DNA from: Escherichia phage anhysbys
Length of the DNA: 64,000 nt
Sequence record: NC_052656.1
Strand: one strand, 5' to 3'
In this document: positions 23,242 through 23,775 of the stretch, one piece after another
Numbering within the stretch: position 1 is the stretch's first letter
How the letters are laid out: each line of letters starts with the position of its first letter
Program-made: the position numbers and the translations under genes
The notes under the pieces: model-generated
What the model saw: only the letters and a program-made list of their open reading frames with translations
The model's database searches: none
Told to the model about the DNA's origin: nothing

Positions 23242-23433
23242 TGTGGTAACAGGGTCGTTGACTTTTGTTAAGAGGGGCTTGCACTGCGGTAGTGTTAGAG
23301 ACTACTTCTTCAGAGGTTAGCTACCAAAGAGGAAAAGGAATAGTCTCGGCTCAAGAACTTTTACGCTGAAAGTTGGGCTTGGTCTTAGAGAATGTAGCGG
23401 TTCTCTACAATCGTCAGCGTCTCTGTTACCACA
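23242..23433 (+). repeat. 11-bp perfect inverted repeat (TGTGGTAACAG / CTGTTACCACA) bracketing a 170-nt leader
   Basis: 23242-23252 is the exact reverse complement of 23423-23433; the right arm ends 5 nt before tRNA-Met. Confidence 0.6.
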
Positions 23434-23438
23434 TTTAT

Positions 23439-23510
23439 GGCCCTGTAGCTCAATGGGAGAGCTGTCGGCTCATAACCGATAGGTAGCTGGATCGAAACCA
23501 GCCAGGGCCA
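23439..23510 (+). tRNA. tRNA-Met (anticodon CAT)
   Basis: hand-folded cloverleaf: acceptor GGCCCTG/CAGGGCC, anticodon loop CTCATAA, T-arm GCTGG-ATCGAAA-CCAGC, encoded CCA. Confidence 0.8.
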
Positions 23511-23515
23511 CCAAC

Positions 23516-23587
23516 GTCTTTATGGTGTAATGGATAGCACAGGAGTCTTCTAAACTCTTAGTCAAGGTTCGATTCCTTGTAAAGACA
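23516..23587 (+). tRNA. tRNA-Arg (anticodon TCT)
   Basis: acceptor GTCTTTA/TAAAGAC, anticodon loop CTTCTAA, T-arm CAAGG-TTCGATT-CCTTG, encoded CCA. Confidence 0.8.
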
Positions 23588-23592
23588 CCAGA

Positions 23593-23775
23593 ACATTTTA
23601 ACATGAATTAGCTCAAGTGATTTGAACCCACTACTGATCATGGTGGCAGAGAATGAGGCAAGTATGTCAGACATTATAAACAAAGGCCACGGTTATATTA
23701 GAAGACATAAATGCTCGAAGAGCACCGTTCGTTGAGAACGGGGGTTGGTGGAGTCACCATTCATGGTAAAATGTT
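23593..23775 (+). repeat. 17-bp inverted repeat (one mismatch) bracketing a 149-nt structured segment
   Basis: AACATTTTAACATGAAT (23593-23609) vs reverse complement of 23759-23775; interior has hairpin CCGTTC-GTTGA-GAACGG; no cloverleaf found. Confidence 0.55.

Follow-up and report, generated by a model that had tools for sequence, protein, structure and literature searches.

The window analysed here, a 64,000-nt stretch of Escherichia phage anhysbys (NC_052656.1), carries a cluster of tRNA genes in which two spacers, one on either side of the tRNA-Met/tRNA-Arg pair, are each bounded by a long-range inverted repeat. We refer to the spacer ahead of tRNA-Met as element A and to the one behind tRNA-Arg as element B (Table 1). 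The 701 bases around the repeats showed 99-100% identity to Phapecoctavirus phages of Escherichia (phAPEC8, ESCO13, SKA64 and others; Stephanstirmvirinae), and the region is the tRNA operon of a phAPEC8-like Phapecoctavirus phage. Ten + strand tRNAs were called by ARAGORN from 23439 to 25361, and Rfam added two extra tRNA genes at 23824-23910 and 24136-24220. The promoter at 23200 sits 7 nt upstream of element A, which starts about 7 nt past the -10 element; to judge from promoter spacing alone, transcription would begin near A23236. From this promoter as far as 24993, the + strand showed no terminator-like site.

The first inverted repeat is as the first-pass annotation had described it: TGTGGTAACAG (23242-23252) recurs at 23423-23433 as its exact reverse complement, with 170 nt inside, and the repeat ends 5 nt before tRNA-Met at 23439. 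For the second repeat, the 17-nt arms with one mismatch and the right arm at 23759-23775 stood, while the left arm had been placed 1 nt off and lies at 23592-23608, leaving 150 nt inside. Both helices are longer than had been noted, the arms of A pairing over 30 nt through 26 pairs including G-U (16 contiguous, a U.U mismatch and 6 more). The window holds three exact 11-nt inverted repeats with a gap of 100-250 nt, where dinucleotide shuffles gave 3.75 ± 2.5, and an exact repeat of that length at such spacing is not unusual when taken singly. A 17-mer inverted repeat with at most one mismatch is unusual, having been observed once against 0.03 expected. Both repeats were judged real because of the folding energy and the conservation with compensatory changes in related phages described below. 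In each case the repeat is the closing helix of a discrete + strand structured RNA and joins its 5' end to its 3' end.

Element A folded at -76.8 kcal/mol on the + strand (z -5.77 against shuffles), whereas its minus strand reached just -53.7. BLAST recovered A from 69 phage records, each with at least 80% coverage and most at least 98% identical, the copies of one clade, made up of the phiWec phages and PsgM04F, being about 80% identical. Between the two clades, 98.6% of the 73 predicted pairs were kept, compared with 38-46% in slid controls, and nine of the 73 had changed on both sides, compared with 0-2 in the controls. The sequence of the closing helix hardly varied, 23 of its 26 pairs being the same in both clades against the roughly 80% identity of the entire element. 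The covariance model built for A (R2) scored 223 bits on the + strand and 30 on the minus strand; it found no second copy in the window and no homologue in the Seunavirus, 05F01 or T4 loci. In the BLAST records and by R2, A is confined to Phapecoctavirus and always occupies the same place.

Element B starts right behind the encoded CCA of tRNA-Arg and folded at -55.2 kcal/mol (z -3.89; minus strand -49.6). It is more widely distributed: B is kept in both Phapecoctavirus clades and Klebsiella phage 05F01, is about 70% identical in the Seunavirus phages PVP-SE1, GAP31, SSE121, 4MG, FENT2 and EspYZU15, and covered at least 80% of its length in 94 of the 96 matching records. Its covariance model (R1) found a single copy in the window and detected B in Avunavirus Av-05 with 98 bits; in Mydovirus KB57, reached like Av-05 by a protein-anchored search, R1 did not find it, an absence that fits gain or loss at the level of lineages. 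In an alignment of 13 sequences from four phage groups, 96.8% of the cells were paired (37-48% in slid controls) and 27 of the 51 pairs carried compensatory changes (4-8 in the controls). Such changes were present in six pairs of the closing helix (helices 1 and 2), and covariation was seen in five of the six stem pairs of P3, ten of the twelve pairs of P4 and the variable hairpin (helices 5 and 6) and five of the six pairs of P5, while P6 was invariant in 12 of the 13 sequences and compensatorily GGUU/AACC in Av-05. Near or full invariance was seen in several unpaired stretches: UUAGCUCA and GGUGGAGUCACC, the P3 loop CUGAUCA, and the junctions GAAUGAG and UCG-N-AGAG. Of these, GGUGGAGUCACC changed only once, compensatorily, in Av-05, and the CUGAUCA loop was the same in all 13 sequences, even in Av-05 with its wholly different stem. 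Avoidance of GATC was considered as a cause of this loop, and no depletion was found (274 observed against 228 expected). Within the P5 loop, the window has T/U at position 23733, where all six of the other Phapecoctavirus genomes compared have G (GUUGA against GUGGA); the GYGGA of other lineages is a GNRNA-type pentaloop.

Identity between the two Phapecoctavirus clades was 80% for A and 81% for B, against 65% for the small open reading frame (ORF) upstream and 95-100% for the tRNAs. Many G-U pairs are conserved in A and B, and together with the stronger folds of the + strand they argue for selection on a + strand RNA. The first-pass annotation had offered small structured RNAs as one reading of the repeats. 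This reading is supported for both elements: both regions fold well beyond shuffles, and both interiors are multi-helix structures maintained by compensatory substitutions, B with invariant loops as well.

Table 1 Features of elements A and B and of the surrounding tRNA operon (positions in the window).
Feature	Position	Strand	Description
Element A	23236-23438	+	Structured leader RNA of ~203 nt; long closing helix and interior multi-branch with four hairpin domains
A closing helix, 5' arm	23239-23268	+	Pairs with 23407-23436; holds TGTGGTAACAG
A closing helix, 3' arm	23407-23436	+	Stops 2 nt before tRNA-Met; U at -1
Element B	23591-23776	+	Conserved structured RNA of ~186 nt; covariance model R1
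B closing helix, 5' arm	23591-23608	+	Pairs with 23759-23776; 10-bp outer helix (23591-23600), A.G mismatch, 7-bp acceptor-like inner helix (23602-23608)
B closing helix, 3' arm	23759-23776	+	
UAGCUCA block	23609-23615	+	Equals tRNA positions 8-14; near-invariant, C to U once, in Av-05
P3	23628-23646	+	Stem of 5-6 bp, 7-nt loop CUGAUCA (23634-23640); anticodon-arm geometry
P4 region	23647-23719	+	Purine-rich invariant junctions GAGAAUGAG and UCGAAGAG flanking P4 (23657-23660 / 23712-23715), and variable hairpin
P5	23725-23741	+	6-bp stem, 5-nt loop; GUUGA here, GYGGA in other lineages
GGGUU and P6	23742-23758	+	GGGUU at variable-loop position, then GGUG-GAGU-CACC
Element C	24005-24120	+	Third spacer RNA, end-pairing helix; between tRNA-Ser and tRNA-Tyr-like gene
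tRNA-Met(CAU)	23439-23513	+	ARAGORN, Rfam
tRNA-Arg(UCU)	23516-23590	+	ARAGORN, Rfam; CCA encoded
Sigma-70-type promoter	23200-23229	+	TTGACA, 18 nt, TG-n-TAGGAT; 10/12 matches, extended -10
Second sigma-70-type promoter	23786-23815	+	Heads the next tRNA unit
Third sigma-70-type promoter	24754-24783		
Terminator	25477-25495		Clearest terminator, after the last tRNA; 7 pairs and U-run

A third spacer of the operon is built in the same way. Element C is closed by a third inverted repeat (arms 24005-24023 and 24102-24120) that forms a helix of 13-19 bp, its fold has a z of -4.55, and phiWec179 and Klebsiella phage 05F01 have kept its core CUUACUUUNNNAGAGUAAA...UUCGGCAGAUGG. We consider it probable that the tRNA operon encodes A, B and C as separate non-coding RNAs, which the tRNA-processing enzymes excise and which owe their stability to their closing helices. 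All three would be transcribed on the + strand from the 23200 promoter. The RNase P cut at position +1 of tRNA-Met would then yield the 3' end of A and the 3' maturation of tRNA-Arg the 5' end of B, and in other phages an RNase P cut at tRNA-Leu would yield the 3' end of B. With their ends blunt and paired, the excised RNAs would be shielded from exonucleases, so that small stable RNAs could accumulate. Release by the tRNA-processing machinery fits the flush position of the elements against tRNAs, which is seen in other genomes as well: in 05F01, B takes up exactly the gap from tRNA-Met (ending at 1499) to tRNA-Leu (starting at 1690), and the copies of GAP31, FENT2 and 4MG stop 2 nt short of tRNA-Leu(UAA).

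Several points weigh against this interpretation. In the window B is followed by a promoter and not by a tRNA whose cleavage could make its 3' end. For A there are only two informative clades, and in near-identical phages three recent single substitutions each leave a pair weakened or broken, with no compensation. The present analysis points to no target or partner of A or B, and no transcriptome of these phages turned up in the literature search.

The helices could alternatively be RNase III processing stems like those of rRNA operons, the enclosed spacer being a discarded by-product. The closing helix of A falls in the length class of RNase III substrates (at least ~20 bp), with only the single U.U mismatch in its 30 nt, and its sequence is near-invariant while the interior diverges. 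At least five spacers of the cluster are closed by long-range or long hairpin helices, and the helices begin near tRNAs, leaving little single-stranded RNA for RNase E. However, a discarded spacer would not maintain compensated interior helices or invariant loops and junctions across phage subfamilies, and the helix of B measures merely 10 + 7 bp around an A.G mismatch and is AU-rich. Because the interiors are themselves under selection, RNase III stems are not the whole story, and we regard this explanation as unlikely. RNase III cutting is compatible with excised non-coding RNAs as an extra processing step, especially for A.

For A, a role in cis is also conceivable, namely a leader of the tRNA operon that acts on elongation or pausing, nascent folding or RNase P access and not as a free trans-acting RNA. 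Such a leader would begin at the predicted transcription start and stop 2 nt before the first tRNA, as A does, and the restriction of A to Phapecoctavirus, always at this place, would suit it. Yet no Rfam cis-regulatory family matches A, the element contains no terminator-like hairpin with a U-run, and a 203-nt fold of five domains far exceeds the needs of known tRNA leaders. The explanation is also inapplicable to B or C, both of which lie between tRNAs, and on balance it seems quite doubtful.

The first-pass annotation had further proposed that the repeats are footprints of miniature inverted-repeat insertions, that is, terminal inverted repeats of elements like miniature inverted-repeat transposable elements (MITEs) inserted into tRNA spacers. 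Size and terminal-repeat layout fit such an origin, and tRNA clusters are insertion hot spots, with an HNH endonuclease gene beside B in PVP-SE1 and SSE121 and a different, 187-nt Seunavirus cassette with a 20-bp terminal helix showing presence/absence polymorphism. This proposal was not supported for A or B. In the 64-kb window, a terminus search and models R1 and R2 found the termini and the whole elements in single copy; both elements keep a constant position in every carrier genome (69 records for A, 96 for B), with no presence/absence polymorphism, and the B motif has no copies in bacterial genomes. The covariation, which includes G-U pairs, implies a constraint at the RNA level on one strand, and no target-site duplication was noticed, though no systematic search for one was made. 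We therefore hold MITE-like insertions to be very improbable. That the regions encode small proteins is hardly credible, even though hypothetical proteins of 34-41 aa are annotated over A or B (PsgM04F, 05F01, WPEC phages) and ORFs of 34 and 37 aa occur in the window, since these start with TTG, neither element has a conserved reading frame, single-base indels between lineages fall inside the ORFs, and the substitutions pair up across helices instead of tracking codon position. Several deposited genomes carry spurious hypothetical proteins over these RNAs.

We also compared the elements with known RNA families. With Rfam 15 at permissive thresholds (5 kb and the isolated elements), the best scores over A and B were 11-16 bits with E >1. 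A and B are not paralogues, as R1 has no match to A and R2 none to B. Homology to T4 rnaC/rnaD was rejected for B, since R1 with filters off gave no significant match in the T4 locus (the best there was a tRNA-Pro), and for A, since R2 finds nothing in that locus. Likening A to the rrn boxA, and B to a T-box or boxB, was done by eye only and is weak, with no Rfam support. The three-block motif of B had no match in 185,579 bacterial and archaeal genomes, a search in which element A was not included. Pattern scans of IMG/VR, metagenomes and genomes returned only Seunavirus/Phapecoctavirus copies or chance matches, and the related-locus search three close relatives only. A literature search on non-coding RNAs of Phapecoctavirus or PVP-SE1-like phages found nothing.

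The first-pass annotation had stated that neither interior folds as a tRNA. This is correct as far as tRNA finders go, ARAGORN calling no tRNA over A or B, but it overlooks tRNA-like modules kept in B. From 23602 onwards B shares with tRNA, in tRNA order, a 7-nt strand that pairs with 23759-23765 (the 7-bp helix), UA-GCUC-A (U8-A9-GCUCA), a D-arm-sized stretch and a 5-bp stem with a 7-nt CUGAUCA loop. The later modules match tRNA order and spacing from the 3' strand of the D-arm to that of the acceptor: (U/A)AGAGC, the 17-nt hairpin P5, a 5-nt stretch corresponding to the variable loop (AGGUC in Seunavirus), GGUGG...CACC and the 7-nt 3' strand. P5, at 17 nt, has the length of a tRNA anticodon arm and stands in its place, while P3 (23629-23645, CACUA-CUGAUCA-UGGUG) combines a 5-bp stem and a 7-nt loop with U at loop position 2, carries GAU in the anticodon place and resembles the arm of tRNA-Ile(GAU). 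A long-range D-stem between GCUC (23611-23614) and GAGC (23720-23723) could be paired in all 13 sequences; the local hairpin that competes with it in the RNAalifold structure is 93.8% paired. Unlike tRNA, B has C for the purine at position 37, and it carries an insertion of ~105 nt and a 10-bp extension of the acceptor helix.

To weigh this resemblance against chance, we used a set of 102 distinct tRNAs that included 19 from E. coli. The best local match of whole B, in the copies of the window and of phiWec179, was tRNA-Ile(GAU) with a score of 19, against a shuffled best of 13.5 ± 1.4 (maximum 18), and the 5' segment alone scored 19 with this tRNA against 10.6 ± 1.3 for shuffles. By hand count, 28 of 37 positions were identical, ungapped, between B and E. 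coli ileT positions 8-43. In the 3' half of Seunavirus B, two blocks match several tRNAs exactly and lie on one diagonal, ileT being best or tied (19 against 11.5 ± 1.7). Furthermore, the true tRNA-Pro genes of KB57 (12.6 bits, E 0.029) and of T4 aligned with R1 positions 129-170, with P5 over the anticodon arm and P6 over the T-arm, the loop having no UUC. None of A, C, the spacer at 24869-24966 or the PVP-SE1 cassette rose above shuffles against the same tRNAs.

Other observations speak against a tRNA origin. The similarity of the 5' half of B to tRNA is significant in the Phapecoctavirus lineage only and not in Seunavirus, the Rfam tRNA model and clan gave no match on B of the window and GAP31 at E up to 10, and a profile hidden Markov model (HMM) made from 74 tRNAs (nhmmer) gave none in A or B. 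In place of the 7-nt T-loop UUCRANY, P6 of B has the 4-nt loop GAGU and looks like a T-arm remnant. The G18-G19 of the D-loop was sought in B, and GG is lacking from the stretch that resembles a D-loop (AAGUGAUUU or AGAUUAUUU). A single-stranded 3' CCA end was likewise sought, and what comes behind the inner helix is G followed by UAAAAUGUUU, whose bases pair within the outer helix. With T-loop, D-loop GG and CCA end all lost, B cannot be charged, and it is not a tRNA. It looks like the remodelled form of a tRNA gene, and a tRNA ancestry of B is plausible, the case for and against it being about evenly balanced.

Rather than being charged, B would more plausibly act by binding something that recognises the shape of tRNA. 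A more specific proposal, which we put forward as speculative and rather unlikely, is that B is a tRNA mimic derived from a tRNA-Ile(GAU)-type gene and serves as decoy or inhibitor of a host factor recognising tRNA shape, with the invariant, anticodon-like CUGAUCA loop as its active part. Targets of such a decoy could be, for example, an anticodon nuclease of anti-phage defence, a tRNA-modifying enzyme or RNase P, and B could also associate with itself via the palindromic UGAUCA of the loop. If B were a tRNA mimic, it would connect to phage tRNAs as counter-measures against tRNA-cleaving defence; and if the decoy reading were true, the tRNA clusters of large phages would be arsenals of tRNA-derived counter-defence RNAs besides supplements of codons.

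The remaining spacers of the operon and the neighbourhood of B in other phages yielded further structured RNAs. The spacer at 24869-24966 forms a long interrupted hairpin of ~24 pairs around a pyrimidine-rich loop (z -5.68), and that at 24481-24562 a hairpin of ~80 nt. Two others, 24316-24405 and 25205-25282, each have an acceptor-like helix and a T-arm (GCAGGUAUCGAAUCCUGC and GCUGGUUCGAAUCCAGC, respectively) and received no ARAGORN call; the tRNA profile HMM matches the T-arm of 25205-25282 (E 0.0025), and both look like decayed tRNAs. In all Seunavirus loci examined, a tRNA-like RNA of ~105 nt lies just upstream of B (1384-1494 of the GAP31 locus; 2198-2306 of the PVP-SE1 locus). It has an acceptor helix, the T-arm GGUGGUUAGAUUCCACC, a UCCA end and extra hairpins, scored 23.7 bits with Rfam tRNA-Sec, which is below the gathering score, and received no ARAGORN call. 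Between this RNA and B lies the 187-nt cassette mentioned above, which is present in PVP-SE1 (locus 2308-2494), FENT2 (locus 1310-1496) and one metagenome contig in copies ~75% identical and is absent from GAP31, EspYZU15, SSE121 and 4MG. In SSE121 (locus 486-1058) and PVP-SE1 (locus 2686-3257), B is followed by the first ~30 nt of a tRNA-Leu(UAA), the HNH endonuclease gene (164 aa, PF13392) and a complete, different tRNA-Leu(UAA), an arrangement that looks like a homing-endonuclease cassette that replaced a tRNA.

Of the two genes added by Rfam in the window, both likely tRNA genes that ARAGORN did not call, 23824-23910 scored 37 bits with tRNA-Sec, below the gathering score, and its counterpart is annotated as tRNA-Ser(UGA) in PsgM04F, while 24136-24220 scored 39 bits with the tRNA model and is a tRNA-Tyr in phiWec179. 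The promoter before A contains an inverted repeat of its own, AACGTATCCT / AGGATACGTT, between the -35 element and the start site (23200-23240). phiWec179 has GCGTGTCTTA / TAAGATACGC there, an apparently compensatory change judged by eye only, and the second promoter has CTAACAT / ATGTTAG at the corresponding place. These repeats may serve as an operator or else form a hairpin in the RNA of read-through transcripts. On the minus strand at 17318-18803, roughly 5 kb away from the tRNA cluster, a T4 Rnl1-type RNA ligase (PF09511) stands beside a metallophosphoesterase, and the two could form a tRNA-repair pair.

Phage tRNA clusters are commonly annotated as tRNAs and empty spacers. In the present cluster, no fewer than three of the spacers are conserved genes for structured RNAs. 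From element C, the further spacers and the Seunavirus RNAs beside B, it follows that these clusters are mixed arrays of tRNAs and other structured RNAs. The carriers belong to a group of therapeutic E. coli and Salmonella phages that is in wide use (relatives of phAPEC8 and PVP-SE1).

Elements A and B can be set beside several known systems. Bacterial YrlA, a Y RNA-like RNA, likewise joins a long helix of its 5' and 3' ends to a tRNA-like module; its Rfam model has no match to A or B, and no Ro/Rsr orthologue is among the ten neighbouring ORFs, the only ones examined. Ends punctuated by tRNAs are known from mitochondrial transcripts and from MALAT1 with mascRNA, where an adjacent tRNA-like structure recruits RNase P and local structure protects the end. 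In MALAT1 a triple helix protects, whereas in A and B the helix between 5' and 3' ends would do so, and the analogy is one of mechanism only. The RNase III stems of rRNA operons (16S, 23S) are similar in that flanks pair over a long range, through about two turns, in a polycistronic transcript with tRNAs, from which a cut in the helix would free the RNA inside; they enclose an rRNA, while A and B enclose ~150-170 nt and the helix of B is short and AU-rich.

In genomic logic A and B correspond to RNA C and RNA D of phage T4, which like them are encoded on the same strand inside a phage tRNA cluster, directly beside tRNA genes, and whose function is still unknown (PMC3014915, PMC9697503). RNA C has a tRNA-like T-arm, matched by the tRNA profile HMM, and an acceptor-like helix, whereas B has lost the T-loop. 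At 139 and 119 nt, RNA C and RNA D are shorter than A (~203 nt) and B (~186 nt), and the end-pairing helices of A and B are much longer. Most likely A and B are likewise small stable RNAs of a phage tRNA operon, set free by tRNA processing. They would be fresh, independent examples of the T4 RNA C/D class that belong to no Rfam family, and B brings to this class a strong comparative alignment, a covariance model with which copies can be annotated, and invariant loops that offer themselves as targets for mutation.

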